Source: Ruminococcus albus 7 = DSM 20455 | GTDB taxonomy: Bacteria > Bacillota > Clostridia > Oscillospirales > Ruminococcaceae | DNA: 32,000 nt | NCBI RefSeq assembly: GCF_000179635.2 | Contig: NC_014833.1 | Coordinates: 840,001 to 872,000, forward strand | Reading direction: 5' to 3' | The notes under the pieces: generated by a model | Databases searched by the model: none | What the model was told of the DNA's origin: nothing | Seen by the model: the letters and a program-made list of their open reading frames with translations, nothing else | Part shown: piece by piece, positions 8,620-31,688 of the stretch | How the letters are laid out: each line of letters opens with the position of its first letter | How positions within the stretch are numbered: the stretch's first letter is position 1 | Translations under genes and position numbers: made by a program

Positions 8620-9270
8620 TTTCTTCCCTCCATGGTAATAATATCGTTCCCGCAGGCTGTGAAAACAGCTCGGTCAGGTATTTCTCAGCATCAACACCGT
8701 TCGCCTGTGCAGTTGAAATGATCGAATACAGCGTTGCACTTGATCTGGCTCCGTTTGCTGTATTTGAAAACAGCCAATTTTTTCGGCCTAACGCAAACGG
8801 TCTTATTGCGTTTTCGGCTCTGTTGTTGTCGATAGGCACGTCTCCGTTTTCAAGAAACGTGTAAAGATATTTCCGTTCATTCAACGCATATCTTACTGCA
8901 TCTGTCAGCTTGCCCTTACCACTGACCTGAACATTTTCAAGCCACGCAAAAAACTCGTCAAGCAAAGGCTTTACCTTCACAAGGCGCTGTTTATATCTGT
9001 ATTCTGTGGAGCTGTCGGCAAGCAGATTTTCTTCGTGATATATCTTGTTGAAATATTCTACTGCCTTTGCCGCAACAGAAGTGCTGTGCAGCTTTTGGTC
9101 GTTCGGAAGAGCCTGAATAAAACCACGCCTTGCATGAGTCATACAGCCGCATCGCTTAGCACCCTCGACTGCATTGTAGGCATCGTATCCGTCACAGATA
9201 AGATAGCCGATAAATCCTTTCAGGAAATTCGAGGCGTGCTCACCCTTTCGTGTCGGCTGATAATCGAAAA

Positions 9271-11243: not shown

Positions 11244-11600
11244 TTAATACAGCGCCCCCGGCTTTCCCTCACGGATAGCCTTCGGCTGCTCTATTTTCAA
11301 GCCTTCCAGAAGCCAGCGAATTTGCTGAGATGTGAGCATTACTGCTTCGGTCTCACTGCGCGGCCACTGGAATCTTCCGTTGTCAAGGCGCTTGTACAAC
11401 AGCAGAAAACCATCGCCCTCCCACAGCAGACCTTTGATGCGGTCACAACGTCTGCCGCAGAACAAAAACAATGCTTTCGAGAACGGGTCAAGTCGAAGCT
11501 GAGCCTGAACGATAGTCGCAAGTCCGTCTATCCCGCGTCGAAGGTCGGTGTATCCCGTAACAAGATAGACCTGTGCGTCCGCTGCCAGATCATTCAGCAT
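11244..11600 (-). CDS. tnpB: IS66 Orf2 (TnpB) accessory protein
   Basis: 118 aa. YLVTGYTDLRRGIDGLATIV...LFLFCGRRCDRIKGLLWEGDGFLLLYKRLDNGRFQWP is the hallmark IS66 Orf2 sequence. Its start overlaps the tnpA stop. Confidence 0.85.
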   Translation of the reverse strand: MLNDLAADAQVYLVTGYTDLRRGIDGLATIVQAQLRLDPFSKALFLFCGRRCDRIKGLLWEGDGFLLLYKRLDNGRFQWPRSETEAVMLTSQQIRWLLEGLKIEQPKAIREGKPGALY

Positions 11601-15704: not shown

Positions 15705-15716
15705 GAAGGTAGTAAT

Positions 15717-16799
15717 ATGGATGTTATAGAAGAAATCAGAGCCCTTGCAGAAGAATATGAAGCATGCGGTGGAACTGAACGTAGTGACGGCAGCAAATCC
15801 AGGCTTTTTGATCCGCCTGCCACAATAGAACAGGTACGTGAATTTGAAAAAGAGATGCGCGTCACACTTCCCGAGGTATTCGTGCTTTATCTAACTGAGC
15901 TTGGCAACGGCGGGATAGGACCGAATTACGGCATATATTCGCTGGATAAGATGCGTGAGCGTAATCCTAATGCAGCAGCACGTGCAGAACTGCCTGTAAT
16001 GATCGGCGGGAGACTTCCCGAAGAAGCTTGGAAGACTTTTGCACGTGAAGCTGAGGCAGCAGATGATGAAGAGGATTTTGATAAAATTGAAGAACTTGAG
16101 CAGAGACTGATCGCAGGCGGTATCTTCATCAGTACACCGGGCTGCACGATGTATACTCTGCTGATGTGCAGAGGTGAAGCGGCAGGCGATGTTTGTACCA
16201 TAGATTTTGATTATCTTACATGGTATGATAAGCCCATCGAAGGCGGATACTCGTTTGAAGATTGGATGATCGAGGGAATGCACGATCATATTGCACGCCG
16301 AAAATACGGGATCGATATTGAAATGGTCACGCGATATAACCAAAGAGGTCTCGGAATGGCAGGTGAAAAACTTACGGATTCGCTGATCGATCTGCGAATC
16401 GCTCAACTAACGGAAGAAGGAGATACTGATGCTGTGAATCTTTCCCATGAGCTCCGCGATTTCTATGAGCGAGCATTTGGTAACGGGACGTTTCGAATGT
16501 GGATCGCAGTTCACCGTGGAGAGGTTATAGGCACTGTCGGGCTGACAATGCTTGAAAAGCCGCCATATTCCGCAAATCCAAACGGAAAGATCGGACTGAT
16601 CTCGAGTATGTATGTCAAACCTGAATTCCGAAGACGCGGCATGGCAAAGTGTATGCTTGGATATGTTATGCGCTGGGCAAAGCGAAACGGCATGGGCATT
16701 GTACAGGCAATGGCATCGGAGCAGGGCGTGAAGCTTTACGAATCCTGCGGATTTAGGCACAGTGAACGTTTTTTGCAGTATGATCTGAAAAATATGTGA
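15717..16799 (+). CDS. SMI1/KNR4 (SUKH-1)-like domain fused to a C-terminal GNAT N-acetyltransferase
   Basis: N-terminal ATIEQVREFEKEMRVTLPEVFVLYLTELGNGG matches the SMI1/KNR4 signature. C-terminal IGTVGL...ISSMYVKPEFRRRGMAKCMLGYVMRWAKRNGM...KLYESCGF matches GNAT motif A (RRRGxA). Confidence 0.8.
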   Translation: MDVIEEIRALAEEYEACGGTERSDGSKSRLFDPPATIEQVREFEKEMRVTLPEVFVLYLTELGNGGIGPNYGIYSLDKMRERNPNAAARAELPVMIGGRLPEEAWKTFAREAEAADDEEDFDKIEELEQRLIAGGIFISTPGCTMYTLLMCRGEAAGDVCTIDFDYLTWYDKPIEGGYSFEDWMIEGMHDHIARRKYGIDIEMVTRYNQRGLGMAGEKLTDSLIDLRIAQLTEEGDTDAVNLSHELRDFYERAFGNGTFRMWIAVHRGEVIGTVGLTMLEKPPYSANPNGKIGLISSMYVKPEFRRRGMAKCMLGYVMRWAKRNGMGIVQAMASEQGVKLYESCGFRHSERFLQYDLKNM

Positions 16800-17480: not shown

Positions 17481-20400
17481 ATGCACAAGAAAATGAAACG
17501 TATCGTTGCAGGGCTTGTGGCAATTACCGGTGCTTTATCGGCAACAGCCGCATCTGCACCTATGAGTGTGTTTGCAAAAAATGAACAGATAATTATTCAG
17601 TCTGACTTCAATGCAGGAATGGGTCTTCCCTGGCGCACATTCGAGAATGCACCGGCACGGCAGGACTTCGATATTTCAGACGGCACTTACAATATAACGA
17701 TACAGAATAACGATGGTCCCGAGTCAAGATGGGATCTTCAGTTCCTTTACAAAAATTTCTATATACAAAAAGGTCATACTTACAAGGTACACTGGAAGGT
17801 CAATTCTTCCAATGAGGGTGAGCTGTATACTAGGATCGGTAATTACGGCGGAACTGTTGAAGTTTGGCACAACAACTGCGGCAATGATGATTTCAATCAG
17901 ACGTGGGAATGCGTAAAGATCGCTAAAGGCGACAACACCTTCGATGCTGAGTTTACAGCTAAAGAAGATATGGATCGTGCTTGCTGGATATTTGATTACG
18001 GCGGACAGGGTCAGTATCAGCCGGTAGATTGCTTCCCCAACGGTACGGTCCTCAAATTCGACGATCTGTCTTTGATCGACACTACTTCCGGGGGCTGTAT
18101 AATCGATTTCATTCCTAACGATTGGGGCATTGTAAGACCCGAAAGCAACGTTCGTCTGAATCAGATCGGTTACTATCCTCAGCTGGAAAAGAGGGCTTCT
18201 TATGTTACCGATGCTGATATGCCACTGACTTTTGAGATACGTGACAGATCGGGCAACGTAAAGTACACAGGCAAGACGAAGGTATTCGGCAGCGATCCTG
18301 ATTCGGGTACAGGTAAGGATACAGTTGTTAATTCGGTCACAAGATACAAGGACTCGGGTGCCAACGTACATATCATTGATTTCTCTGATTTCAGAACTGT
18401 GGGCGAGTACACTATATTCGTTAAGGATACAGTCGGCGTAAGCGGCACTCAGGTGATGGGTTCTAAGAAAGTAAACGATACAAGGCTAAGCGGTGATAAG
18501 CTTTTATGGACAAATCCCGTTACTATGAAAACTTATACGATGAACGAGAGCAGTACATTCAGGATAGACAGACAGATCTATGATGATCAGCTGCTGAGGG
18601 ATTCCATGAACTACTTCTATCAGAACCGCTCAGGAGTCCCGATAAAGTCTGAGTACATCACATCAGGTGATAAGTCCGCACTGTCACACCTTAAATATGG
18701 TCATAACCCCGATATGGCTTATGTACAGAGCAAATGGGTAAAGACTTACGAAGATGACTTCTCTGATGGCGAGAAGGATAAGAAGATCGACGTTACAGGC
18801 GGATGGTACGCTGCAAGCGACCACGGTAAGTACGTTGTCGAAGGCGGTTTCTCCGTATGGACACTTCAGAACGCTTATGAGTTCTCCAAGAGGAGCGGCA
18901 ATACTCGCAAGTGGACTGACGGCACTATAGCTGTCCCCGAAAATAAGGATAATGCTCCCGATATACTGGATGAAGCAAGGGTAGAGCTGGAGTGGATGTT
19001 CAAAATGATAAATGAGGACGGCTTTGTATATCATTCAGTGCAGGACTATAAGTGGGCAGATATTCCGATCAGGTTAGGGCCCATATACTGTACGGACCCC
19101 CCAATGGAGTACACTTATCCTTACCGTATCGTCAGACCTCCTACGTATGCAGCCACATTCAACATGATCGCTTGTGCTGCACAGGCTTCACGTCTGTGGA
19201 AGGGCATAGATGATGACTTCGCAAAAGAGTGTCTGCAAAATGCACAGAACAGCTGGAAGGCTATCATGGCTAAGCAGTCCAATTGGAACGTTACAAGTGG
19301 CTATTACTATGATGATCCTTACTTTGCTCCCAGTGAATCCGGCGGAAACAACTTTTTCGGTGACACCTATGTAGTTGACGATGCTTACTGGGCAGCTTGT
19401 GAGCTTTATGCTACAACAGGGGACTCGGCTTACTATGGCTTCTTAAAAAACTATAAAAATTATAATGATCCGTCAGGTCAGGATAAGGCATTCAGCCTGA
19501 CTTCCTGCCTGAGCGGTGGTGAGAACAACGGTTCGTTCGGTTCCTTCAATTGGGGCAATACTGCGGGTCTGGGTACCCTTTCACTCTACCTGAGCGACAA
19601 GACATCTTCTGCTGACAGGAAGACTATTGTCAATTCTATCAAAAATATTGCTGACCAATATATTATTCAGATGAGTAAAGAAGGTATGGGCATACCTTAC
19701 AAGAGTGCGACTGTCGGGGGCTATATCGGTATCGGTGATGGAGATGTGTACACAGGTTATGAATACGGCTCCAACTCATTCGTTATCAACAACGCTATGG
19801 TCCTTGCATATGCTTATGATACTGATAACAGCAAATATATTTATCGGAACGGTGCTGCCGAAGCACTTGATTACCTCTTCGGACGCAACGGTCTGGGCTT
19901 CTCTTATGTATCAGGCTACGGCGATAAGGCAATGAGATCGCCACACCACAGATACTGGGCACAAAGTATTGATCCGTACTTCCCGGCGGCACCCTCAGGT
20001 GTTCTTGCAGGCGGTCCATGCTCAGATCTGTATCATGATAAATATCTTCGTGGTCTCGGCTATAAAAGAGGCACTTTAGCTGATCAGAAGTGCTATGTTG
20101 ACAGTGCAGAGGCATGGTCTGTAAATGATGTTTCCGGCAGCTGGAATGCTCCTCTGGTCTGGATGTCATCATTCATGAACGATCGTTTCGGCGGTCCGAA
20201 ACCAGTCCCCTATCCTACCAACATTAAGGTCGATTACAGTGAGGAGTATCATCAGGTAAGATTTACCTGGAACAAGGTGGAAAACGCTGACAGATACGGC
20301 ATAGCAGTTTATCTGGCAGGCAAGTGGAGAGTTCAGAAACAGGATATCACAGGCACTACCTACACTTCTCCCAAAAATCTGACTCCCGGCGTAACTTATA

Positions 20401-20483
20401 AGGTAGCGATTGCCGCAAGAGTGAACGGCACATGGGATACTGAAAATGCTATCAAACGTGCTTGTACTGTTACTATAAAGTGA
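17481..20483 (+). CDS. Multidomain glycoside hydrolase family 9 protein (signal peptide, CBM4/9-like module, Ig-like CelD_N module, GH9 domain, conserved C-terminal module)
   Basis: ATG at 17481 follows RBS AGGAGGG. Signal peptide MHKKMKRIVAGLVAITGALSATAASA. GH9 signature 1 SYVSGYGDKAMRSPHHR is intact. GGWYAASDHGKY and YVDSAEAWSVNDVSGSWNA are GH9 motifs with substitutions. C-terminus is YHQVRFTWNKVENADRYGIAVYLAGKWRVQ... Confidence 0.9.
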   Translation: MHKKMKRIVAGLVAITGALSATAASAPMSVFAKNEQIIIQSDFNAGMGLPWRTFENAPARQDFDISDGTYNITIQNNDGPESRWDLQFLYKNFYIQKGHTYKVHWKVNSSNEGELYTRIGNYGGTVEVWHNNCGNDDFNQTWECVKIAKGDNTFDAEFTAKEDMDRACWIFDYGGQGQYQPVDCFPNGTVLKFDDLSLIDTTSGGCIIDFIPNDWGIVRPESNVRLNQIGYYPQLEKRASYVTDADMPLTFEIRDRSGNVKYTGKTKVFGSDPDSGTGKDTVVNSVTRYKDSGANVHIIDFSDFRTVGEYTIFVKDTVGVSGTQVMGSKKVNDTRLSGDKLLWTNPVTMKTYTMNESSTFRIDRQIYDDQLLRDSMNYFYQNRSGVPIKSEYITSGDKSALSHLKYGHNPDMAYVQSKWVKTYEDDFSDGEKDKKIDVTGGWYAASDHGKYVVEGGFSVWTLQNAYEFSKRSGNTRKWTDGTIAVPENKDNAPDILDEARVELEWMFKMINEDGFVYHSVQDYKWADIPIRLGPIYCTDPPMEYTYPYRIVRPPTYAATFNMIACAAQASRLWKGIDDDFAKECLQNAQNSWKAIMAKQSNWNVTSGYYYDDPYFAPSESGGNNFFGDTYVVDDAYWAACELYATTGDSAYYGFLKNYKNYNDPSGQDKAFSLTSCLSGGENNGSFGSFNWGNTAGLGTLSLYLSDKTSSADRKTIVNSIKNIADQYIIQMSKEGMGIPYKSATVGGYIGIGDGDVYTGYEYGSNSFVINNAMVLAYAYDTDNSKYIYRNGAAEALDYLFGRNGLGFSYVSGYGDKAMRSPHHRYWAQSIDPYFPAAPSGVLAGGPCSDLYHDKYLRGLGYKRGTLADQKCYVDSAEAWSVNDVSGSWNAPLVWMSSFMNDRFGGPKPVPYPTNIKVDYSEEYHQVRFTWNKVENADRYGIAVYLAGKWRVQKQDITGTTYTSPKNLTPGVTYKVAIAARVNGTWDTENAIKRACTVTIK

Positions 20484-20514
20484 TAGACTTCATTGATCCA
20501 ATTTATTAAAAACA

Positions 20515-23169: not shown

Positions 23170-23303
23170 AAATAACACCTCATGTTTTGAGTCGATTTAC
23201 TGACACGGACAGACCTCTGTCAAAGTGAAATTGAGGTCTGTCCAGATTACCGTTACAAATTATATCACATTTCCATGTAAATTTCAATATGATATTATAA
23301 AAA

Positions 23304-23445
23304 ATGGCTATCCCCTTAACACACTGCACGCAAAATCACTGCACCAAAGCAGTCGATAGCCTTAAATACGCACTGTTTCCAAGTTTACAGCAGTTGGATC
23401 AGTAGCAGTATTCGGCAACATATAACGCTGTGTGGATCTTTTCGC
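23304..23445 (-). mobile_element. Truncated, diverged third IS1595-family copy (right-end ~140 bp only, inverted orientation)
   Basis: ATGGCTATCCCCTTAACACACTGCACG...CACTGCACCAAAGCAG...AGCAGTATTCGGCAACATATAACGCTGTGTGGATCTTTTCG aligns by eye (mostly matching, with scattered mismatches) to the reverse complement of 10141-10293. Homology ends 11 bp before the xylanase stop codon. Confidence 0.75.
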
Positions 23446-23456
23446 CTACTCAGTTA

Positions 23457-24512
23457 TCACTCTACAGTAAAAGTCACAGCGTTTTTGATAGCATTTGCAG
23501 TATCCCATTTGCCATTAACTTTGGCTGCGATAGCTACGTTGTAGGTCTTGCCCGGGGTGAGGTTCTTGGGAGTAGTATATTCTGTATCGGTGATACTCGC
23601 CTCCTGAACTCTCCACTTGCCTGCCAGATAAACAGCTACGCCGTAACTGTCAGCACCATTTACAGCGTCCCAAGTAAATCTCATCTGCTTGTACTGGCTG
23701 TCATATTCCATCTGTATGTTCTTAACGGAATCATCTTTATGATGTCCGCAGTCACAGATGCCTCGTGGATACATATTCATAGAAACTTCAACCTGACCAT
23801 CGCTCTCCCAACCTTCAACGCTGAAAGAAATATCGTACAGGTTCCCCACCTTCATACCCAGGTCCTCCCAAGCCTTGAAGTGTTTGGAAACGCTGATAGT
23901 ACCCTTGGTTCTCGTGTTCTGACGTATGCTTATATACTGTGTGAAATACCTGTCGCCTTCGATGGTATAGGAATTTTTGTTTATAGTATATACCTTGTAC
24001 TCACTTCCGTCAATATTAACGGAACCCTTGTACTGTGCAGAAGCAGACTGCGCAGGTGACCAGTTCTTCCAGTCTTCAATGATGTAGTACTCTACCAGAG
24101 GATTCTGCGCCCAGCCGTAGATACCGATCCTGGCGTTACCGGATGAACCTGCATACCAGATGCAGTCGTAGTCACAGTAGAAATTACCATAGTCCTTGTA
24201 AGTCTTGGGATTATTCAGACCCCAGCGAAGACCACGATTAGTAATGAAGTTTCCTCTCGTGTTGTTAGGACCACACTTCCACTGTGCGCGGAAACCACCG
24301 TCATTTTCGTGCAGTGTCATTGTAGAAGAATTATTGGTATCTGCCTGCCAGATCTCGTGGTGGTAGTCGTTGTACCAGCCGACTTCCTGTGTGTGTGACG
24401 GGCTCGTAGTGAGCGTCTTTGCAGCAGATGCAGTAACTGATGTTATAATAGGTGAAACCATCAGCACACCGGCAACAAGAGCGCCTAAAACACGTTTTGA
24501 AACATTTTTCAT
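23457..24512 (-). CDS. Glycoside hydrolase family 11 endo-1,4-beta-xylanase with conserved C-terminal module
   Basis: Signal peptide MKNVSKRVLGALVAGVLMVSPIITSVTASA after RBS GAGGAG. GH11 hallmarks YGWAQNPLVEYYIIEDW (nucleophile Glu) and SVEGWESDG (acid/base Glu). C-terminus is YKQMRFTWDAVNGADSYGVAVYLAGKWRVQ... Confidence 0.92.
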   Translation of the reverse strand: MKNVSKRVLGALVAGVLMVSPIITSVTASAAKTLTTSPSHTQEVGWYNDYHHEIWQADTNNSSTMTLHENDGGFRAQWKCGPNNTRGNFITNRGLRWGLNNPKTYKDYGNFYCDYDCIWYAGSSGNARIGIYGWAQNPLVEYYIIEDWKNWSPAQSASAQYKGSVNIDGSEYKVYTINKNSYTIEGDRYFTQYISIRQNTRTKGTISVSKHFKAWEDLGMKVGNLYDISFSVEGWESDGQVEVSMNMYPRGICDCGHHKDDSVKNIQMEYDSQYKQMRFTWDAVNGADSYGVAVYLAGKWRVQEASITDTEYTTPKNLTPGKTYNVAIAAKVNGKWDTANAIKNAVTFTVE

Positions 24513-25110
24513 AAGCTATTTCTCCTCGCTATCAAAAAGATTAAAACTATATATAGATACTTAAATGATACAACGCATTGACTTTTTCGGTTCAATATTA
24601 TTTGATTATATTTTATAATTTTTTAGTAATTGGTTCTAATTATATTTTGCTTATTATCATTTTAGCAATACCATAAATTGCTATTTATTGCCTTTTAGTC
24701 ATCAACTATTTACTTTTTAAATTATAATTACCACAAATCTTTTAATCATTATAAGATAAGCATTCAACACATAAAACCCCGGAATTGCGCGGCTTCGCAG
24801 GATTGATAGCATAGAAAATGTATGTTCATAAATAAGGATCCGTCTGACATTAATACAATTTTTTTGTCATAAATTCAACATTTTTCATGCTAATATTGAT
24901 AGGCTTTAAATCGTACATCATACTCAAAGTATCAGTTAATTATCCGTTGTTTGTAATTTCACCGGTTTCTTACTCCCTATGAGTATTACAACAGCCTTTT
25001 TGACGACAGAAACAGTCTTTCCAAGACCGATACAGATGCGACATTTATGTGTATAAATGATGTTTGTATTGATAGGAATGATTTGAAATTTAAGTAGTTT
25101 AATATTACAG

Positions 25111-25154
25111 AAAATAACCGCCCCATTCCGTTTATAACAGTGGAATGGGGCGGT
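25111..25154 (-). terminator. Rho-independent terminator of the four-gene operon
   Basis: A perfect 13-bp GC-rich stem ACCGCCCCATTCC / GGAATGGGGCGGT followed on the minus strand by TATTTT. It lies 30 bp after the stop at 25185. Confidence 0.75.
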
Positions 25155-25184
25155 AGTTTATTCGTCATTTTGGTGTGGATCTGC

Positions 25185-25886
25185 TCATCTTGTGATATTA
25201 GCAATAGCGGCGGATATAACATCTTCTACGCCGCAGACTTTATCAATTTTATCCTTGTCGGGAGCATTCCTTAGTTCTGCGATACCTGCTCTCCACAAAA
25301 CCAGAGTATTTACATTCAGTGAATCTATCCGCTGTGACATGGCACTGTTGCGGGTGTACATATCAGATATCATCATAATACCTTGTGATGCTATGTTTGC
25401 CGAGATTACAAGGTCGTTTATTTTTTTATCTGCAAGGATCTGGTAGTATTTCCAGTCGGTATCTTTATCTTTGTTTTTCATATGTTCACTCAATGCGGCT
25501 GATGCTTCATTAAGCTCCTGTATGCAGCACTCCAGCACTTGTTTCATGGTGTCAAGCAGCATATTCTCTTTGTATAGTCCTATGTATATTTCCTGAAAGC
25601 TATCGGATATCCTCTGGGCTTCTTTGTCAGCTTTTTCAGCATTGTCAATGAGTCTTGCGTAGCTTATAGTTCCCACAAATCCCTTGTATTTTGCCAGACC
25701 GTTTATCTTTAGCTGGTCTGAAGCAAGGGTCAGGACATTTATAGCTTTGTCAGGCATCCTATCCTGCTGTATTCTGAATAACATATCTGATGTATCAGCT
25801 ATTCTCTTCTGAACATCTCCTGCATATGAGGGGAGAAGTTCAAAGGTCATCATATCGGGGGTATATTTCTTGGTACTATTCAGCAT
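25185..25886 (-). CDS. Short TelA-like (toxic anion resistance/YaaN-KlaB family-like) helical protein; gene 4 of the operon
   Basis: 233 aa, all-helical in character. ADKKINDLVISANIASQGIMMISDMYTRNSAMSQRIDSLNVNTLVLWRAGIAEL parallels the conserved TelA core (..DKR.HDL..S.Q...Q...I.....N.....KI.S......PLWK.Q..), recalled from memory. Its start overlaps the upstream stop (ATGCTGA). The ORF call is solid; the family call is moderate. Confidence 0.65.
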   Translation of the reverse strand: MLNSTKKYTPDMMTFELLPSYAGDVQKRIADTSDMLFRIQQDRMPDKAINVLTLASDQLKINGLAKYKGFVGTISYARLIDNAEKADKEAQRISDSFQEIYIGLYKENMLLDTMKQVLECCIQELNEASAALSEHMKNKDKDTDWKYYQILADKKINDLVISANIASQGIMMISDMYTRNSAMSQRIDSLNVNTLVLWRAGIAELRNAPDKDKIDKVCGVEDVISAAIANITR

Positions 25887-26770
25887 GACCTGTTCACCTT
25901 AGCAAGCTTGATATACTTATCAAGATCTATCTTCTTAAAAAAATTATAACTGTCACAATTTATATCCTGACCAAATATACCCATCTGAACTGGTGATGAA
26001 ATGACTATATCAGTATCGGGTATATTGAAGATATCACGGAACTGGTCTTCCGTAAGAGGCTGACCATAATAGGGATACCAGTTCTTTTCGTGGAATGACA
26101 TGGACTCCATCACCCTCAGCACGACACGTCGTAAAAACATAACCGAGCACATGGGGTAGAAGCATTTTTTCATATTAATAGGTTCCGACGGGCTTTTCAG
26201 CCTTATCTCGGAGTTGAACACCTCGTCATTGCTGTAGCATGAGCTGAACACTTTAAGGTCAACACCTATGCCGTATTCTTCAAGCAGTTTTATCAGACTG
26301 AGAGTCAGCGCGCCGCGGTTGGTGACTGCCTGCTCTAAGGTGTGAATTGAATATGCCAGATTGAACCATATAGTAACGAATTTTTTCTCTCTTGCTCTTG
26401 TGAGCCTGTACATTGTCTTCGGAGTACCTGCCACGTACGCGGGAATATTTGGGTGAGAGCCTGCCATTGCCTTTTCCTGCCTGCGTCTGTAAGTTCTTAT
26501 CGGCATAGTCTTTTCAAATTCCTTCAGCATTTCCAGTGTAATGTCATAATTACCCGTATATCCGCCGATAAGATAATCTACAGCATTATCAAAGGTATCC
26601 TCGGGAAAATCCGGACGTCTGATGATACTGTGCTGTTTGAGAAATATTTTGTCGTTTACTTTAGGTTTGCTGAGTATATACATCTGCATATCACTCAGAC
26701 TGTTGAACGCCGCATTGTATACAGTCATTTTTTTGTATTGGTATACTTTGAGGTTCATAAATTCTCTCAT
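25880..26770 (-). CDS. Unknown protein, partner immediately downstream of the AAA_5 NTPase; gene 3 of the operon
   Basis: 296 aa. ATGA start/stop overlap with the NTPase gene. No motif I can assign. The strand-helix pattern KKFVTIWFNLAYSIH...RGALTLSLIKLLEEYGIGVDLKVF could be a degenerate vWA/Rossmann-like core without a DxSxS MIDAS. Confidence 0.75.
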   Translation of the reverse strand: MREFMNLKVYQYKKMTVYNAAFNSLSDMQMYILSKPKVNDKIFLKQHSIIRRPDFPEDTFDNAVDYLIGGYTGNYDITLEMLKEFEKTMPIRTYRRRQEKAMAGSHPNIPAYVAGTPKTMYRLTRAREKKFVTIWFNLAYSIHTLEQAVTNRGALTLSLIKLLEEYGIGVDLKVFSSCYSNDEVFNSEIRLKSPSEPINMKKCFYPMCSVMFLRRVVLRVMESMSFHEKNWYPYYGQPLTEDQFRDIFNIPDTDIVISSPVQMGIFGQDINCDSYNFFKKIDLDKYIKLAKVNRSC

Positions 26771-28911
26771 CGTCTTGTTTCTCCGTTTCGTATAGCGTTA
26801 ACTATATTGCTGAACACGCTGAATATCCCGACACTTTTTCTTTCACGACCGTCGTAGAACTTTGCCATTTCTCTCTGTAGAAATGCAAGATATTCGCTGT
26901 CCTTGGTCTCAACGAATTCATATCTGACGATCGCCTCGACATCGTAACTCTGGTGATCAAGGTACTTCTTTATGCTGGTTGCATCACGGGTGGTGAATAT
27001 ACCCGGAGCTGCTGTCTGATTTTCTTTGCTCCATGCAGTGGTGGCATTGCGGAAGACCTCAGCGAATTCAAACCACTGAGGATAATTACAAAGTATGTTC
27101 TCTTCAAGTCTGTTATCGTAATCAACGTATATCGCTGTGAATCTCTGCATGAGAGATTCCTCTATCTTCTCACGGGTGCTGTAATTCCTGTCAGCGCCGT
27201 CACCTGCGGTGTTGCCTGCTGCTATGATACGGAAATTCGGGTGGCGCATTACTCGCTCGCCGTTAGGGAAGCAGTAGCTTGCATTTTTGGAATTGGACAT
27301 AAAGCTGTTGAGTTTTACTGCTGCCCTGATATTGCCATTATCAAATTCATCGCAGAAAACTATACCGCCGTATTTGTATGCTCGGTAGAATGCAGGATAG
27401 TTGTATCCGCCGTCCGCTGTCTGGAATCCCAGCAGGTCATATTCCTCGTTTATGTAGCCGATATCCAGATATTCCAGTCCCAACAGCTTGGCTATCTGCC
27501 CTACAAGAAAAGTTTTTCCGCAGCCGGATGGGCCTATCATATATGGGTTTGAATCTTCGATTACAGCGGTGATTATATCATCGAAATGCTCATGATAAAG
27601 AGTATTGTTTTCATCGATATACTTCTGCTTTTTCTCCATGAGTTTTGCGAACCTGTCTTTGAAGGGATAGGATTCATCAAAGAAGAAATTAGGTGTCATA
27701 TCAGCAGGCTCGGTGCATCTCTGGGCATTTATCTGAACTATGGTTGGGTGCACTCCTGCCGCCACCTGTATTGGTGCGGCAGCTGCTTCAGTTTTTTCGG
27801 CGTCGAAATTTTTGCTGAACTCATCAACGCGTATTATTCTGTTCACCAGATCACTGCTCTTGTTTACCTCTGATATGATATTTTTCAGTTCGCCGTTGTT
27901 AAGCATTGACGAGGCTCTGTCAATAGCTTTGTTTGCCTCCGTGTTTATGCGGAAAAGCTCTGCGGCTGTGTTGTCCTTTATGCCTGAAGCCAACAGTTTA
28001 AGCTCTCTTATCTTACTGTCCGCAGAATCTATGACATCTCTGATCAGCTTATCCTTTTCAAACACTATACTGTCATGTTCTTCGTTCAGAAAAGCATCAA
28101 AAGATTCTTTCAACTTGAATTCCGCATTCTTTGCTTCTCTTGTAAGTTTTTCCGTCTCACTAAGTGTGAGATCCTTGATAGTCTTTTCATTCTGCTCAAC
28201 AAATCTTTTGAAGCTGTCGAGGCGATCTTCTGTAAGGTCGAGAGTGTGCTTTGCGTTCTCAAGGTTTTCCTTGCTGTTTTTCAGCAACATCTCAGACCTT
28301 GCTATCCTTTCTTCACTGATATCGTATATTCCGCAAGCCATTCGCGCATAGCTGAGAAGTTTTTCACATTCGATCTCTTTGTCATGAGCACTGCATATCT
28401 TGATAGCACCGCTTATAAGCGATGAGGCAAAGCTTTTCTCATTGTTGTGGTACTGTCTGAGCTCACAGCTGAAAGTATTGATATAATAGATGTTTTTTTC
28501 TGCTGTTGGTATATCTGCAATGGTGCACATGGTATCGATGTAGATCTGCTTGTCACTGAAACATAAATACATCTCTTTAGTGAACAATCCTGAATGATAG
28601 ATGCCGTCCTTTTCAAATATTTTCAAAAATACTGCATTTGCAAACCTGAAATCTTTGGTTGCTTTTCCGAGAGGAAGTACGGTGCGGTAGATATCCTCTG
28701 CATCTTTCATTATTTCTATAGGCGATTTTTCACTTCGGGAAGTTATAATGCTGTTGACCAGCTTTGAAAGTGTTTCTTCCGAGCCGAATCTGTTTTTATC
28801 GGGCTCCCGCTTTATCTCACTGAGGTATATACTCAGCGGAACATATTTATCGTCCTTTTTTAACGCTGCCTTGACCGCCTGCAATATTGCGTCTATCCTG
28901 TTTTTTGTCAT
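26767..28911 (-). CDS. Coiled-coil-containing AAA_5 (MoxR/McrB-like) NTPase; gene 2 of the operon
   Basis: 714 aa. Walker A GPSGCGKT (27511-27534), Walker B IVFCDEFD (27340-27363), sensor region IIAAGNTAGDGAD (27190-27228) and LMQRF. The N-terminal ~190-aa domain is unassigned. A long E/K/L-rich heptad-like segment covers about aa 195-345 (27879-28329). Confidence 0.85.
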   Translation of the reverse strand: MTKNRIDAILQAVKAALKKDDKYVPLSIYLSEIKREPDKNRFGSEETLSKLVNSIITSRSEKSPIEIMKDAEDIYRTVLPLGKATKDFRFANAVFLKIFEKDGIYHSGLFTKEMYLCFSDKQIYIDTMCTIADIPTAEKNIYYINTFSCELRQYHNNEKSFASSLISGAIKICSAHDKEIECEKLLSYARMACGIYDISEERIARSEMLLKNSKENLENAKHTLDLTEDRLDSFKRFVEQNEKTIKDLTLSETEKLTREAKNAEFKLKESFDAFLNEEHDSIVFEKDKLIRDVIDSADSKIRELKLLASGIKDNTAAELFRINTEANKAIDRASSMLNNGELKNIISEVNKSSDLVNRIIRVDEFSKNFDAEKTEAAAAPIQVAAGVHPTIVQINAQRCTEPADMTPNFFFDESYPFKDRFAKLMEKKQKYIDENNTLYHEHFDDIITAVIEDSNPYMIGPSGCGKTFLVGQIAKLLGLEYLDIGYINEEYDLLGFQTADGGYNYPAFYRAYKYGGIVFCDEFDNGNIRAAVKLNSFMSNSKNASYCFPNGERVMRHPNFRIIAAGNTAGDGADRNYSTREKIEESLMQRFTAIYVDYDNRLEENILCNYPQWFEFAEVFRNATTAWSKENQTAAPGIFTTRDATSIKKYLDHQSYDVEAIVRYEFVETKDSEYLAFLQREMAKFYDGRERKSVGIFSVFSNIVNAIRNGETRR

Positions 28912-28921
28912 ATCCTTCCAC

Positions 28922-30037
28922 CTATTCGTTATCTTTATGTAAGTATCTGTCTATTATTTCAACACCGGGTATACCAAAAAGATCATCCTTGATTTTTTTG
29001 ATCTCTCCATCGTTTATATGTCGGTAATAATATCCTTCCTGTGAGCTGTCCAGGCTCTTTATGATTCTTGTGCAGCACAGTTTTGATTGTACAAGCAGCC
29101 TGGTTTTTTCTCTGAATATTTCATGAACTACCGATATCTCACTTTTTCTGCCGTTGCAGAGTTCTTCCTCATATATCTGAGTTATCATTTCGCTGTCATT
29201 GCAGTAAATTGTTTCTTTATCCGTCATGAAGATCTTTTCGCCCCAAGGCAATAAAGCTCCCTGAGCATAATTGCCGCCGATCTCGCATATCAGCTTCACT
29301 TCCTCAGACATTTCAGTTTTTTCAAGCTCGGGAGAGATCTCCTCACAGAATATCACTTGTCCGTCTTCGATGATCATACATCTGAGGCTGTTCTGTAATA
29401 GATCGTATATATATTCATGTCGAAGCTCCCTATCGGTAAAACTTTGGGTTATCACTTCGGTTTTTGAATGGGCATACCTGAGCGTGATCTGTGCTGTGTG
29501 AGTGCCATTGAATAGATTTCCCAGAGTATAAACATATTCGTTACCCTGTGAAGTTATGCTGCATGGCAGTTGTTTATTTATTCCGTTGACAGTACAGGAT
29601 ATCATATATCTGTTTCTGTTCCCTTTGATGTTTGAAAGCCTAAATGTTGCTTCTGCATCACTGTATATCTTTGAAAGAAAGTATTCGATGAAATTTTTGG
29701 AAAACATACCTGTGCCGAACGTCAGTACCTTTTCTTCATGCTTACTGCACTCAGCAATAAAGTTGAAACGCGTGGGGAAACTAAGTTTTTTACGTTTCTC
29801 AATTATCTCGGAAGTATAGTCGTCGAAACAGCTTTCGGGGTAATTGAGATACAATCGGTCTGCTGTTTTTGCCAGCATGGAGAAGTAGTCGTCATATTCA
29901 CATAGATTGATATACTTATTTCCGTTATATATCACTATCAGTGCCTGTGTGTTATCAGGCATGGTGTAATATCTTATCAGATCTGCTTTTTCTATCTGAG
30001 ATATTTCCAACTGAGTTCTGCTCATGAATGGTGTCAT
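28922..30037 (-). CDS. Unknown protein; gene 1 of the operon
   Basis: 371 aa. The ATG is 10 nt after RBS AGGAG (30048-30052). There is a 10-bp gap containing GGTGGAAGGA before the next gene. No signal peptide, TM segment or motif I recognise. Confidence 0.75.
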   Translation of the reverse strand: MTPFMSRTQLEISQIEKADLIRYYTMPDNTQALIVIYNGNKYINLCEYDDYFSMLAKTADRLYLNYPESCFDDYTSEIIEKRKKLSFPTRFNFIAECSKHEEKVLTFGTGMFSKNFIEYFLSKIYSDAEATFRLSNIKGNRNRYMISCTVNGINKQLPCSITSQGNEYVYTLGNLFNGTHTAQITLRYAHSKTEVITQSFTDRELRHEYIYDLLQNSLRCMIIEDGQVIFCEEISPELEKTEMSEEVKLICEIGGNYAQGALLPWGEKIFMTDKETIYCNDSEMITQIYEEELCNGRKSEISVVHEIFREKTRLLVQSKLCCTRIIKSLDSSQEGYYYRHINDGEIKKIKDDLFGIPGVEIIDRYLHKDNE

Positions 30038-30072
30038 AGTTTACGCACTCCTGTACGCGTTAGAATTATAAT

Positions 30073-30105: not shown

Positions 30106-30189
30106 ATTATTATAAGCGTTTATAAAGGATCTGTTATCTATCAGGTAAATTATGTGGTAACTTAGGTGCGCATGACTGATATCCATTAA

Positions 30190-30362
30190 ATATTATATCA
30201 TATGTATCAATAAAAGTAAAGCAACTGCAACGTGCTTGAATGTTAGCTTTAGTTGCGAAGCCTCACACGACTAAAGTCGCGTGCTTCCAATAGTGTCCTA
30301 TAGGACACGCCCACTTTAGGAGGGCGGACTACGTTTCTACCATACAGCCTGAACTCAGAAAA
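30190..30362 (-). ncRNA. Candidate omega-RNA (reRNA) scaffold/right end of the TnpB element (boundaries approximate)
   Basis: It lies immediately 3' of the tnpB stop. Dense hairpins on the minus strand: CGCCC-n10-GGGCG, GTGTCC-TATA-GGACAC, GAAGC[CACGCGAC-TTTA-GTCGTGTG]AGGCTTC and GCAAC-n21-GTTGC. The complementary ACTTTAGT / ACTAAAG segments suggest a pseudoknot. Confidence 0.45.
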
Positions 30363-31688
30363 TTATGCTGTTGGAGCAATAAATTCCGCATTCAGGTTAA
30401 CTAAGGTAGAGAACGTGCAGGTGCTTCTCTTACTGCATTGAGGGACTTTAGCCTCAATGAGCAACCTTGAATTCTCATCCAAGGATTTTAATATTTCACG
30501 TATGAAGTATCTTGCCCCTATATTATACGAAGCAGATAGATCACAGTTGTAGGTCTTGCCATTTTGAAATTTGCATAGCTCATAGGTATTGAAACCACCG
30601 AATTTACCACGAAGTACAAAACCACTGCCATCGTAGGCAAGGCGTGACGTATTCCATGCACAGATATGGCTTACTCTCATACCTAGTCTGTGAGCTTTAT
30701 TCGTTACAATAGACTGAACTTCCTGACTGCGCCACAGCTTGAGTTTCTGCTTTTTAGAACCGCGGACCTTACCGTTCTTGTCTAAATGCTCAAATACAAT
30801 AACATCTGCATTATAAAGAACAGCTATATCTACGATGCAGGCAGCAGTTTTAGTGGCAATGTCGTGATTGATTCCTTTGGCTTTTGCCCAAAGCCTTGGT
30901 GTTTTATAGTTACCATGCTGCTGAGCTTTTTTTATACGGTTAACACAATGCATAAGATGGTCTGTTTCTTTGGTAAGCTTATAAAAATGCCTTCCAAGAA
31001 TAGTGCCATCTGAACGCATTACGGAAATCGTAGCTGCGGTGTTTATTCCAAGATCTACAGCAACAATGGTCTGTTCATACACAGATATATCTGCAAGTTT
31101 GACCTTTTCCTCAAACGGAAAGTCCAAAAACCACTCCTTGCCTCGTTTTTGAAGTGTTGGAGCGCATTGCTTGCGAAAATTGCAATGTCTGTATATATAA
31201 TCCATATCAGACTTTTTAAAGTTTATCGTTATCCAGTCCCATGTATTACGGATGTAGACTTTGATCTGGGCAGTATAATCACCGGTCTGATTGTACATTC
31301 CTGTACGATACATTGACGGAAATGTATATCCTGCTTTTGGATACGATGGTTCTCTGCCTACAGGATCTTTTATCCAATTGGCGAGATTGCTTTTGTAAGA
31401 TGATACCTTGCCTATAGCTTCGTTAATAGCACCACGGCGCAGATAGCTTGGCATCTTATAGAATTTTGTATCAAAATCATAAATTGGATCGGGATTATCT
31501 TTTGTAGAATGGATCAGTGTTTCAATATATGTGAGTTTACTCACCCCTTTGAATGAAACAATGTTATCCCATTTATCAAGACATACTTTGATAAGGTAAT
31601 CTACAGCATGTCTGTATACGATAACGGTATCTTTAAAGATGTTGTTGTAATGCTTGATCTTAACGCTATAAGTCGTATATATCTGCAT
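30363..31688 (-). CDS. tnpB: IS200/IS605-family TnpB-like RNA-guided endonuclease (OrfB), with no TnpA nearby
   Basis: 441 aa. The RuvC triad context is IVAVDLGIN (D), DVIVFEHLD (E) and YNCDLSASYNIGARY (D, matching the hADxNAAxNI motif). RBS GGAGGGAG upstream. The usual CxxC...CxxC zinc finger between E and the last D appears degenerate. Confidence 0.85.
   Translation of the reverse strand: MQIYTTYSVKIKHYNNIFKDTVIVYRHAVDYLIKVCLDKWDNIVSFKGVSKLTYIETLIHSTKDNPDPIYDFDTKFYKMPSYLRRGAINEAIGKVSSYKSNLANWIKDPVGREPSYPKAGYTFPSMYRTGMYNQTGDYTAQIKVYIRNTWDWITINFKKSDMDYIYRHCNFRKQCAPTLQKRGKEWFLDFPFEEKVKLADISVYEQTIVAVDLGINTAATISVMRSDGTILGRHFYKLTKETDHLMHCVNRIKKAQQHGNYKTPRLWAKAKGINHDIATKTAACIVDIAVLYNADVIVFEHLDKNGKVRGSKKQKLKLWRSQEVQSIVTNKAHRLGMRVSHICAWNTSRLAYDGSGFVLRGKFGGFNTYELCKFQNGKTYNCDLSASYNIGARYFIREILKSLDENSRLLIEAKVPQCSKRSTCTFSTLVNLNAEFIAPTA

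Follow-up and report, generated by a model that had tools for sequence, protein, structure and literature searches.

A four-gene operon, conserved among gut and rumen Clostridia, that combines a MoxR-type ATPase, a DUF7192 protein, a TelA-family protein and an orphan protein

We analysed a stretch of 32,000 nucleotides from Ruminococcus albus 7 (the window, to which all positions refer), in which four minus-strand genes lie end to end. A sequence-only reading had reported here four ORFs with their ribosome-binding sites, two overlaps (ATGA and ATGCTGA) and a terminator, and all of these are present at the positions it gave. The features of the locus are the following:

28922-30037, minus strand: gene 1, ORF of 371 aa, orphan protein, putative adaptor or sensor
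26767-28911, minus strand: gene 2, ORF of 714 aa, MoxR/CobS-class AAA+ ATPase by sequence
25880-26770, minus strand: gene 3, ORF of 296 aa, DUF7192 protein
25185-25886, minus strand: gene 4, ORF of 233 aa, TelA-family protein, C-terminally shortened
30048-30052, minus strand: ribosome-binding site of gene 1, AGGAG, 10 nt 5' of the ATG, read from the sequence
25109-25154, minus strand: intrinsic terminator, a hairpin (25117-25154) followed by a T-run
30109-30220, minus strand: candidate promoter region from a consensus scan, with TTTACT-17-(TG)TATAAT at 30220-30192 and ATAACA-17-TATAAT at 30137-30109

As read from the sequence, genes 1 and 2 are spaced by 10 nt (GTGGAAGGAT), genes 2 and 3 overlap by ATGA, and genes 3 and 4 by ATGCTGA. 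The terminator hairpin has 16 pairs counting G-T, 9 of them G-C, and TATTTTCT comes after it on the minus strand; a scan found no minus-strand terminator-like site within the four-gene unit. Both promoter-like sites fall within the 325 bp that separate gene 1 from a TnpB-like ORF and match the consensus at 10 of 12 positions, one of them with an extended -10 TG. Such sites are no commoner than in shuffled sequence, and the promoter candidates are therefore a plausibility check only. No transmembrane segment was found in any of the four proteins.

The earlier picture of a unit built around an AAA_5 NTPase, its tightly coupled partner and a protein resembling TelA is supported by matches to AAA_5, DUF7192 and PF05816. 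The ATPase, gene 2, is composed of three parts:

28324-28911, minus strand: residues 1-196, family-specific N-terminal domain, with conserved positions and no family match
27652-28323, minus strand: residues ~197-420, charged, Pro/Gly-poor helical arm and linker, from a composition scan
26767-27651, minus strand: residues 421-714, AAA+ domain, with AAA_5, phrog_249 and CbbQ/NorQ matches

The AAA+ domain matches AAA_5 (1.6e-9) and phrog_249 (5.4e-32), and its only solved relatives are CbbQ (7e-6) and NorQ (9e-4). Its catalytic set, comprising Walker A (GPSGCGKT, 460-467), Walker B (D521-E522), sensor-1 (N567), R580/R590 and sensor-2 (R642), is invariant in 37 sequences, as are Y491, G495, A499, G501, Y503 and F508 of the helix-2-insert region. 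These signatures place gene 2 in the MoxR/CobS class of AAA+ ATPases, with a catalytically intact domain. In the N-terminal domain, F118 and G194 are conserved and A71, Y75, G103, F110, K121, R152 and Y196 near-invariant, and family profile searches gave no match. Pro and Gly are absent from three windows of the arm over residues 197-308, where 45-48% of the residues are charged, and one occurs in 281-336. Beyond the R. albus loci the arm retains 25-39% identity against 52-72% for the AAA+ domain. The long coiled coil proposed earlier fits this composition and is probable on composition alone.

Gene 3, which had been thought to match nothing, belongs to Pfam DUF7192 (PF23822, 6.9e-21) and to phrog_1909 (3.2e-23), and it adjoins the ATPase gene in all cellular loci as well as in all five phage lineages inspected. 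Its AF2 model (pLDDT 78.4) found as best Foldseek match the vWA domain of NorD (9qh6_G, E 6e-3, probability 1.0, 80 columns, TM 0.21), and three more NorD entries and the TRAP vWA were also listed. In this model, the secondary structure that follows a disordered loop (b-a-b-b-a-a) agrees with the vWA order bA-a1-bB-bC-a2-a3, and a degenerate motif, N-x-A-x-S (N-x-S-x-S in Kayvirus), stands at the MIDAS position at the end of b1. The canonical MIDAS (DxSxS) is absent from DUF7192, none of 23 members matched a vWA Pfam family even at E <= 10, hhalign of DUF7192 against a VWA_CoxE protein gave a probability of 0.7%, and searching PDB sequences with a profile gave no match. Judging from the model, DUF7192 is probably an adaptor with a degenerate vWA-like core, its fold being weakly vWA-like. 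The analogy to MoxR-vWA pairs drawn by the sequence-only reading was thus in the right neighbourhood, with CbbQ and NorQ nearest to gene 2 and NorD nearest to gene 3. The loop itself has the following position:

26393-26497, minus strand: gene 3 residues 92-126, invariant loop predicted to be disordered (pLDDT below 50), AGSHPNIPAYVAGTPKTMYR

G104, P107, G115, P117 and M120 are invariant, phage members at ~21% identity included, and the loop comes immediately before strand 130-137 (b1). The ring-engaging NorD finger and CobT shaft likewise come just before vWA beta1 (PMC13036017; 10.64898/2026.07.21.739949), and by this analogy the loop is a candidate finger for the ATPase ring.

Gene 4 matches TelA (PF05816, 3.7e-8, 33.3 bits where the cut-off is 30) over profile positions 23-232 of 332; the Ruminococcus protein is without the C-terminal third of the domain. 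Its positional orthologues in Lachnospiraceae are full-length TelA proteins (in L005, 1.4e-94 and 317 bits), and those of L013, L016 and L031 are TelA as well. We regard gene 4 as a fast-evolving helical TelA-family protein and a putative client or effector. The kilA operon of RK2, inside which a TelA homologue lies, is lethal to the host when derepressed. Studies of mutants and of expression link TelA with envelope stress caused by nisin, daptomycin and cationic peptides (PMC12791056; PMC6811118), and Aravind and colleagues proposed that it builds sub-membrane structures blocking phage entry (PMC7824862). The locus resembles the TelA-XpaC pair of Firmicutes and the TerZABCDEF systems with their TerF/TerY vWA proteins in that its TelA-family protein is genuine, that TelA is tied to envelope-acting antimicrobials, and that in Ter systems TelA is proposed to be functionally linked to a vWA-type protein (PMC7824862). 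It differs from them by lacking linked XpaC, TerB, TerC, TerD and TerY genes, by coupling TelA to an ATPase motor, and by the shortened domain of the Ruminococcus protein.

As the sequence-only reading had found, the first protein has no recognisable match: there is no gene 1 family in Pfam, NCBIfam, PHROG or PADLOC, none of nine genuine family members scanned carried a Pfam domain, and neither PDB nor BFVD offered a fold like that of the AF2 model (pLDDT 84.7), an N-terminal alpha/beta domain (~1-127) followed by a long beta-hairpin meander (132-348). By transitive phmmer matches, the gene 1 proteins of the different loci are orthologous. The family counts only 96 representatives among 1.84e9 proteins, and that of gene 2 is also rare (129 clusters among 5.8e9). 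We consider gene 1 to be a cytoplasmic protein and a putative adaptor or sensor.

The McrBC/CoCoNuT analogy suggested earlier did not hold. A restriction system of this kind would target nucleic acids through a coiled-coil AAA_5 GTPase/ATPase and a nuclease subunit. The locus does share with it an AAA_5-family NTPase (McrB also falls under AAA_5) bearing a long helical arm, a coupled partner and possibly a finger-in-pore design, which McrBC uses without a vWA domain (PMC13036017), and there is a weak PADLOC match to mad8 (0.003). However, the ATPase groups with MoxR, its solved-structure relatives being CbbQ and NorQ and not McrB. Neither PD-(D/E)xK, HNH or another nuclease family nor a DNA- or RNA-binding domain was found in the four proteins, the conserved residues of DUF7192 (G, P, M, FLRR, E, YG) make no nuclease motif, and the PADLOC results contain no McrB or McrC model. 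We therefore hold this explanation to be extremely improbable.

The four families were found co-localised in ~20 distinct loci of Oscillospiraceae and Lachnospiraceae with unrelated flanks. In every related locus with enough sequence all four are adjacent, and for this reason they form a unit beyond chance. Tight coupling is kept across loci, with overlaps of 1-26 nt or gaps no larger than about 60 nt; the gene order is permuted in L013, and one contig bears two divergent copies. The locus is thus a four-gene operon that gut and rumen Clostridia have conserved: both the single translationally coupled unit claimed from the R. albus sequence and the co-occurrence suggested as a check on it stand. 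Over equal distances, genes 1 and 4 diverge to 18-28% identity against 35-52% for genes 2 and 3. No PADLOC match above chance was obtained for the unit and no description of the four-gene combination was found in the literature, in agreement with the earlier view of it; the combination of a MoxR-type ATPase, DUF7192, TelA and an orphan protein is undescribed.

As a description of the operon's surroundings, an IS-saturated accessory region was not supported. A TnpB-like ORF does adjoin the operon, but its other neighbours in the window are GH11 and Cel124 genes, positions are identical in sister strains, and the IS elements of the window lie at 0.9-14 kb, away from the operon. Where neighbours of the cellular loci were annotated, they proved to be ordinary metabolic, regulatory or other housekeeping genes (glycoside hydrolases, ABC transporters, amino-acid and NAD metabolism, DegV, GGDEF). 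The defence islands, prophages or plasmids that the sequence-only reading had thought worth looking for were not seen around these loci, and the unit was absent from the IMG/VR viral contigs and PLSDB plasmids searched.

The ATPase-DUF7192 pair, taken apart from genes 1 and 4, occurs in 427 phage records. It was adjacent, in either gene order, in each of the five lineages inspected (phages of Staphylococcus, Listeria, Mycobacterium, Lactobacillus and Clostridium), and the groups concerned are Kayvirus, Watanabevirus, Homburgvirus, Bronvirus and Clostridium phages. The phage CobS-like ATPase (phrog_249) and DUF7192 protein (phrog_1909) of Herelleviridae (phage K, S25-4, 3-521), Homburgvirus, Bronvirus and Clostridium phages are homologous to genes 2 and 3, at 29-37% identity for the ATPase domain (E down to 1e-31), and the phage DUF7192 proteins carry the same invariant loop motif as gene 3. 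Unlike gene 2, the phage ATPases (340-404 aa) are without the N-terminal domain and helical arm, and phages yielded no homologue of gene 1 or of TelA. Since these pairs function in the absence of both, the core module has something else as its native substrate.

Given that the pair is far commoner in phages, the operon might be a domesticated or remnant phage module, chaperoning for example virion or replication-complex assembly, with no cellular role. A role as virion-assembly chaperones has been suggested for other phage MoxR-vWA pairs (PMC7824862; PMC10638138), and one locus (L004) has a terminase gene at 9 kb. We find this very improbable: the cellular architecture, with its 420-residue N-terminal extension, gene 1 and TelA, is absent from phages, the viral contigs gave no match, and the operon has no phage structural, integrase or lysis genes on its flanks. 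Moreover, the ORFs are intact and tightly coupled and the catalytic residues invariant over 35-90% identity, which indicates purifying selection in cellular genomes.

Comparison with the cellular MoxR/vWA pairs (NorQ-NorD, CbbQ-CbbO, CobS-CobT, RavA-ViaA) brings in another explanation, a chaperone for cofactor or metal insertion or for enzyme reactivation (of CobST-CobN, NorQD-cNOR or CbbQO-Rubisco type), which would have a metabolic enzyme from another locus as its client, TelA and gene 1 being accessory. The locus is like these pairs in its AAA_5-class ATPase, in the directly downstream, translationally coupled partner gene, and in the flexible conserved segment at the finger/shaft place before beta1. 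CbbQ and NorQ are themselves such chaperones, the motor-adaptor-effector model proposed for MoxR systems, with a 6:1:1 stoichiometry, is general to them (10.64898/2026.07.21.739949), and phrog_249 is labelled 'porphyrin biosynthesis' (5e-32), which this explanation would take as roughly right. Yet that label is an annotation transfer, and the pair occurs in lytic Staphylococcus, Listeria and Mycobacterium phages with no corrin or tetrapyrrole genes annotated in the regions inspected. DUF7192 escapes all vWA profiles and is without the DxSxS-T-D MIDAS, the DxSxS part of which serves client or metal binding in those systems, and NorQ and CbbQ have no counterpart of the 420-residue N-terminal domain and arm. 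Nor do the annotated neighbours in the cellular loci include a client gene, whether CobN/ChlH-like, NOR, Rubisco or other; instead of a metalloenzyme or metal-insertion context, the only constant neighbours are TelA and the beta-rich orphan protein. We consider such a chaperone improbable. By the motor-adaptor-effector logic, the extra co-encoded proteins could themselves include the client.

An anti-phage role of abortive-infection type was also considered, in which gene 1 would sense a phage component, MoxR-DUF7192 would be a threshold switch driven by ATP, and TelA, once released or activated, would perturb the membrane and stop the infection, the phage pairs being the evolutionary source of the host system or decoys against it. 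The rarity and patchiness of the family, the much faster divergence of genes 1 and 4, the duplicated copy and the core shared with more than 400 phage records favour a conflict role, to which the proposed blocking of phage entry by TelA and the host lethality of the derepressed kilA operon may be added. The layout also recalls the MoxR-vWA ternary conflict systems, which combine a MoxR-type ATPase, a co-chaperone and at least one system-specific protein, with fast-evolving accessory components and a proposed threshold-switch logic (Kaur et al. 2020, PMC7159879). The absence of a defence-island or mobile-element context argues against it, as do the stable position in sister strains, the absence from viral contigs and plasmids and the lack of an above-chance PADLOC match. 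Family searches recognised no effector domain, be it nuclease, protease, TIR, pore-forming or of another kind. Unlike the ternary systems, the locus has no VMAP, inactive STAND, FtsH or beta-propeller-vWA third component and no effector-associated domains; TelA is unmentioned in the survey of these systems, which come mostly from multicellular actinobacteria, cyanobacteria and others, whereas the locus is found in unicellular gut Clostridia (PMC7159879). Altogether, an anti-phage role is possible but unlikely.

The reading that we prefer, at a probability of roughly 45%, is that the locus encodes a cytoplasmic machine of MoxR-type motor, adaptor and client that remodels TelA. Gene 2 would form a hexameric ring, from which the N-terminal domain and arm project as a docking platform. 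DUF7192, as a decayed vWA-like adaptor, would insert its invariant loop into this ring in the manner of the NorD finger or CobT shaft and relay ATP hydrolysis to TelA, changing the assembly or conformation of this helical, membrane-proximal stress protein. Gene 1, which evolves fast, may be the specificity, sensor or adaptor subunit, and the most likely output would be a TelA-dependent protection or alteration of the envelope upon envelope damage or infection. It is just as possible that TelA is a stress protein of independent action that shares only its regulation with the rest, or that gene 1 is the client. In the TelA-remodelling reading, the ATPase-DUF7192 pair, widespread in phages of Gram-positive bacteria, would be the older module, to which the arm, gene 1 and TelA would have been joined in the Clostridial operon; genes 1 and 4 are co-encoded with the pair in every adequately covered Clostridial locus.

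The operon consists of four genes on the minus strand, and the ORFs of 371, 714, 296 and 233 amino acids described in the sequence-only reading were recovered at exactly these positions:

28922-30037, minus strand: gene 1, 371 aa, orphan protein
26767-28911, minus strand: gene 2, 714 aa, AAA_5 ATPase with an N-terminal arm
25880-26770, minus strand: gene 3, 296 aa, DUF7192 protein
25185-25886, minus strand: gene 4, 233 aa, TelA-like protein

The junctions between these genes were read directly and agree with the coupling proposed earlier. An AGGAG ribosome-binding site lies 10 nt 5' of the first ATG of gene 1, genes 1 and 2 are separated by the 10-nt spacer GTGGAAGGAT, and the overlaps are ATGA between genes 2 and 3 and ATGCTGA between genes 3 and 4. 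A terminator, made of a G+C-rich hairpin (25117-25154) followed by a T-run on the minus strand, closes the unit, and no terminator-like site was detected on this strand inside the four genes. Two promoter-like sites are present in the 325-bp spacer upstream of the operon, in a scan that serves as a plausibility check only, such sites not being enriched compared with shuffled sequence. A 78-aa ORF (24986-25222) that overlaps the terminator was taken as spurious, and an Rfam search over the whole window gave nothing. None of the four proteins (0/4) contains a transmembrane segment.

Full-length homologues of gene 2 (about 710-780 aa) form a small family of 129 clusters among 5.8 billion, which occurs in Lachnospiraceae as well as in Ruminococcus and other Oscillospiraceae. 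The co-occurrence of the four genes, left by the first reading as a question for comparative genomics, was borne out, all four families being present in every locus with enough sequence. These loci belong to sister strains of the window organism (L019-L021 and L026, with the same GH11/Cel124 synteny as the window), to R. albus (L003, L025), to two other Oscillospiraceae (L004, L015) and to Lachnospiraceae (L005/6, L012, L016/17, L007 from Acetatifactor and L008 from Lachnoclostridium), and about ten more with the four families come from metagenomes. Further loci were gathered by contig look-ups and by a metagenome scan with gene 3. A scan of genome contigs with the gene 2 alignment was swamped by the generic Walker A pattern and gave, among the matches listed, two true loci and three unrelated AAA proteins. 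In three loci (L031, L032 and L035), tblastn failed to detect gene 4. A 206-aa ORF is located 3' of gene 3 in L031, where it scores as TelA above the Pfam threshold, and at the equivalent position in L032, while the sequence of L035 stops too soon past gene 3 for gene 4 to be visible. L013, the locus that has diverged furthest, still contains the four genes but in another arrangement (TelA, gene 1, gene 2, gene 3). Coupling is tight in all loci, where adjacent genes overlap by 1-26 nt or are separated by no more than about 60 nt, and the flanks of the operon differ from lineage to lineage. That the genes keep their order, stay together even where it is permuted and do so whatever their surroundings shows that the four form a functional unit. 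Two divergent complete copies of the operon (L038 and L039) were found about 6 kb apart on one contig (JAEEGI010004505.1); they share the same orientation, and a DUF4230 gene and three ORFs without Pfam match lie between them.

Residues 421-714 of gene 2 form an intact P-loop domain of the AAA_5 family (PF07728, 38.4 bits versus a cut-off of 22), confirming the AAA_5 NTPase read from the sequence. Across 37 sequences, the Walker A motif GPSGCGKT, the Walker B residues D521-E522, sensor 1 (N567), the arginine finger (R580/R590) and sensor 2 (R642) are invariant, and gene 2 is, by its catalytic residues, an active ATPase. Among PDB sequences it has no solved relatives besides two NorQ proteins and CbbQ (7e-6), which are MoxR-class chaperones; a profile search of the PDB with the gene 2 alignment gave only ClpX and P-loop noise. 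The alignment to CbbQ crosses the helix-2-insert region with small gaps only, and Y491, G495, A499, G501 and Y503 of this region are invariant in the 37 sequences. Judging from sequence, gene 2 is a MoxR-class (clade 7, AAA_5) ATPase with a predicted helix-2 insert. Upstream of the AAA_5 domain, residues 1-196 form a family-specific domain, and residues 197-336 contain a single Pro/Gly, with none in the windows spanning 197-308, where 45-48% of the residues are charged. Such a composition fits a long helical arm; the long coiled coil claimed for this protein is plausible, its support being this composition. Beyond R. albus, the AAA+ domain shows 52-72% identity and the N-terminal parts drop to 19-39%. 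Among PLSDB plasmids, gene 2 matched only distant AAA domains of Proteobacteria. Its best PHROG is phrog_249 ('porphyrin biosynthesis', CobS-like; 5e-32), a label that is similarity-based only. The CobS-CobT-CobN cobaltochelatase comprises CobN and a CobT with a MIDAS vWA domain, whereas neither CobT nor CobN was matched in the operon or its flanks, and this candidate was rejected on that ground. A metal or cofactor chaperone is an improbable reading of the operon.

The third protein had been described as matching nothing. It belongs in fact to Pfam family DUF7192 (PF23822; 7e-21, 75.2 bits versus a gathering cut-off of 27) and to phrog_1909. All of its homologues scanned (23/23) match DUF7192, and phage members include those of S25-4 (1.8e-85) and Silverleaf (9.6e-84); we found no mention of DUF7192 in the literature. 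The DUF7192 gene adjoins a homologous, shorter ATPase gene in five phage lineages, namely Staphylococcus Kayvirus, Lactobacillus Watanabevirus, Listeria Homburgvirus, Mycobacterium Bronvirus and Clostridium phages, the last with the order reversed, and the pair is therefore an old two-gene module. DUF7192 and 'porphyrin biosynthesis/CobS' genes are carried by over 400 sequenced phages, including Kayvirus (phage K relatives), Listeria and Mycobacterium phages. These phage genes are a two-gene module of motor and probable adaptor, not a cobalamin enzyme. Genes 1 and 4 had no match in phages by tblastn, and scans of viral contigs (IMG/VR) with genes 1 and 3 gave nothing. That the operon, which has the ATPase-DUF7192 pair in common with phages, is itself a phage remnant is very improbable: a prophage remnant was rejected because the flanks are not prophage and IMG/VR contigs did not contain the unit. 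Nor did PLSDB. In phage S25-4 (L002:995-3046, Kayvirus), a 683-aa protein with a PcfJ domain, of a family known from conjugative plasmids, is encoded four genes upstream of the pair, which adjoins MazG-like and nucleotide-kinase genes.

Because MoxR ATPases work with vWA adaptors, DUF7192 was tested as a cryptic vWA domain. The top Foldseek match of the AF2 model of gene 3 (pLDDT 78) was the NorD vWA in the NorQ complex (9qh6_G), with a probability of 1.0 and an E-value of 6e-3, but over 80 columns and with a TM of 0.21. The next matches were three more NorD entries and the TRAP vWA, but also many Ras proteins. From residue 130 on, the order of elements in the model fits the bA-a1-bB-bC-a2-a3 order of vWA domains. 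At the sequence level, VWA Pfam families matched none of 23 DUF7192 members at E <= 10, the DUF7192 profile gave only a chance match (E = 1.4) against PDB sequences, and hhalign against a single VWA_CoxE protein gave no signal, with a probability of 0.7%. A canonical MIDAS (DxSxS...T...D) was not found in gene 3 and is degenerate at best: the end of beta1 reads N137-L-A139-Y-S (family consensus N-L-A-Y-P), that is N-x-A-x-S versus D-x-S-x-S, and the phage proteins have N-S-S-I-S (Kayvirus) or D-R-G-M-A (Watanabevirus) at this position. The model weakly suggests that DUF7192, the constant partner of gene 2, may be vWA-like. The hallmark of the DUF7192 family is a loop (residues 92-126 of gene 3, AGSHPNIPAYVAGTPKTMYR) that is predicted to be disordered in the AF2 model and directly precedes beta1. 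Five of its residues (G104, P107, G115, P117 and M120) do not vary between Ruminococcus and phage members, whose overall identity is about 21%. The NorD finger that enters the NorQ pore sits just before beta1 (PMC13036017), and a flexible shaft segment of CobT precedes the MIDAS strand (10.64898/2026.07.21.739949). By analogy, the gene 3 loop may engage the ATPase ring.

TelA proteins are widespread and recurrent in tolerance screens and, to our knowledge, no mechanism has been known for them since the 1990s. Gene 4 matches TelA (PF05816) at 33.3 bits versus a cut-off of 30, over profile positions 23-232 of 332, or two-thirds of the domain, so that the TelA-like label already attached to it lies above the gathering threshold. 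Positional orthologues score 317 bits over the full length (L005, 1.4e-94), 63.9 (L016), 43.5 (L013) and 42.1 (L031), and two fall below the threshold (L004, 18.3 bits; L015, 26.6 bits). The TelA identity of gene 4 is solid, since its Lachnospiraceae positional orthologue is an unambiguous full-length TelA, and the Ruminococcus protein is a shortened, fast-evolving TelA derivative. No solved TelA structure was found by sequence search. Experiments have tied TelA to nisin, tellurite and cationic-peptide tolerance and, through XpaC, to that of daptomycin (PMC12791056; PMC6811118). XpaC and TerB/TerC/TerD/TerY are linked to TelA in Ter and TelA-XpaC operons, whereas none of them is found among the operon neighbours in any locus.

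Gene 1 remains, as first noted, without a family in Pfam, NCBIfam, PHROG and PADLOC. A profile search covering all 1.84 billion representatives recovered just 96 relatives; some are fragments, and most stand alone and measure roughly 330-450 aa. None of nine genuine members scanned contained a Pfam domain; a 3256-aa match was spurious, being a cadherin-repeat protein. Gene 1 proteins of different loci are homologous through transitive matches, and their broad alignment contains no conserved stretch of 7-10 columns. In the AF2 model (pLDDT 85), an alpha/beta domain at the N-terminus is followed by a long meander of beta-hairpins. Fold searches returned only neuraminidase, FABP and OspA from the PDB (TM 0.13-0.31) and only MORN-repeat proteins from BFVD (TM 0.11-0.25), and no fold was assigned because these weak matches show just richness in beta-hairpins.

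We favour, with a probability of about 45%, the reading of the operon as a MoxR-type machine made of a motor, an adaptor and a client. Gene 2 would be a hexameric motor whose helical arm serves as a docking platform, DUF7192 would be the adaptor gripping the ATPase ring by its invariant loop, TelA would be the client or effector of the motor, and gene 1 would be the specificity subunit. The class of the ATPase, its constant pairing with DUF7192 and the linkage of all four genes are the established points of this reading. The operon is of the MoxR-adaptor remodelling kind and differs by its MIDAS-less adaptor, its TelA component and its orphan subunit. The third component of MoxR-vWA ternary conflict systems is a VMAP, inactive STAND, FtsH or beta-propeller-vWA protein (Kaur et al. 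2020), whereas genes 1 and 4 match no such component; TelA is mentioned 0 times in the survey of these systems (PMC7159879). We found no link of TelA with a MoxR ATPase in the literature, a prior mention in the 2012 Ter-system survey (Anantharaman et al.) being possible. The layout had also been compared with that of McrBC and CoCoNuT. These systems contain a McrC-type PD-(D/E)xK nuclease and an N-terminal nucleic-acid-binding domain, whereas the operon has neither, and no nuclease or DNA-binding family was matched in the four proteins in Pfam, NCBIfam, PHROG and PADLOC 2.0.0, a release that may predate CoCoNuT models. This comparison was therefore abandoned, and we give almost no credence to a McrBC-like system.

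The window is part of a cellulolytic Ruminococcus chromosome. Immediately downstream of the operon come GH9, Cel124-dockerin and GH11 genes, and a TnpB-like ORF is located upstream of it, at a site shared by the sister strains; IS1595 in two copies, a split IS66 and further fragments are found at 0.9-14 kb of the window. At the other loci, the neighbouring genes encode two-component systems, ABC transporters, peptidases, enzymes of amino-acid and NAD metabolism, DegV and GGDEF proteins; the setting in defence islands, prophages or plasmids that the first reading proposed to look for was found at none of them. The PADLOC search (PADLOC-DB 2.0.0) gave nothing above chance, its sole match being mad8 on the P-loop region of gene 2 (15 bits, E 0.003), with nothing for genes 1, 3 and 4. 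A dedicated defence system is possible, though unlikely, for an operon with housekeeping flanks and no recognised effector domain; the rarity of the gene family, the divergence of genes 1 and 4 to 18-28% identity versus 35-52% for genes 2 and 3, the duplicated copy on one contig and an ATPase-DUF7192 core common to phages speak for a role in conflict. More specifically, and doubtfully, the operon may be an ATP-gated system of immunity or envelope guarding that has so far gone unrecognised: the MoxR motor, via DUF7192 as a MIDAS-less vWA descendant, would arm or release TelA, its effector, once the hypervariable gene 1 protein senses an invader. The ATPase-DUF7192 pairs of hundreds of lytic phages that infect Gram-positive bacteria (phage K, P100/A511-like Listeria phages, mycobacteriophages) would stand on the opposing side of this arms race, as the evolutionary source of the host system or as disarming mimics. 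Were this guard reading true, TelA would gain a defined biochemical partner and a function. A conserved operon wiring TelA to an ATP-driven remodelling motor makes it testable that TelA is a client or effector with a controlled assembly state. The analysis gives DUF7192 and the phage genes mislabelled 'porphyrin biosynthesis/CobS' a first functional frame, and the MoxR-partner paradigm would extend to an adaptor that has lost its MIDAS. The reach of these ideas is limited by the rarity of the four-gene system, and its hosts are hard to manipulate genetically.

Several neighbouring features were observed in the window. The TnpB-like ORF (30363-31688, 441 aa) matches OrfB_IS605 at 6.6e-5, below the Pfam threshold. 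Since an ORF labelled PF27142 'Aq_aa04' occupies the corresponding position in the sister strains L019 and L020, this gene appears to be an old resident and not a recent insertion. A G+C-rich, hairpin-forming stretch (30230-30360) just past its stop codon is a candidate guide (omega) RNA, for which Rfam was blank. The two IS1595 copies (856-1900 and 9271-10300) are 97% identical; the second has divided the transposase gene of an IS66 into two parts (8609-9142 and 10231-11151), and the IS66 TnpB is at 11244-11600. An inverted IS1595-end remnant of about 145 nt (23297-23444) sits 1.7 kb from the operon, in the interval separating the Cel124 gene from the GH11 gene. A module of about 240 nt recurs at 4-110, 3802-4040, 20245-20485 and 23455-23695 with 74-79% identity, at the 3' ends of several secreted-protein genes, GH9 and GH11 among them; the GH11 copy overlaps the C-terminal part of the protein that Pfam calls fn3. 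At 14505-16799, a gene fusing SUKH-1 (SMI1/KNR4) to a GNAT acetyltransferase comes after an AAA_14/DUF4143 ATPase gene; the fusion is unusual, SUKH domains being typical immunity-protein modules.

Other loci gave further observations. Directly downstream of the permuted operon and on the same strand (L013:6064-12908, contig NODE_62_length_114345, ERZ28436072) lies a complete NAD salvage/repair set, encoding an isochorismatase (PncA-like), NAPRTase, NUDIX, NAD synthase, a nucleotidyltransferase (NMNAT-like), an ADP-ribosylglycohydrolase, CinA, DUF5662 and NAD kinase, which resembles the NAD-reconstitution gene sets that counter NAD-depleting immunity. In the Oscillospiraceae locus L004 (13881-19135), genes for a PP2C phosphatase and for two Ser/Thr kinases, one with LRR_5 repeats, are convergent with the operon and, in this one locus only, recall the TerY-phosphatase-kinase triads of Ter systems. 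Finally, in three Lachnospiraceae loci (L005:1-8659, L006:1-8659 and L012:1-6660), the operon is directly downstream of a second MoxR-type cluster with DUF5682, VWA_CoxE, 635-aa and 115-aa proteins and a DUF4132 protein of 1319-1348 aa, so that two ATPase/vWA-type systems stand side by side.
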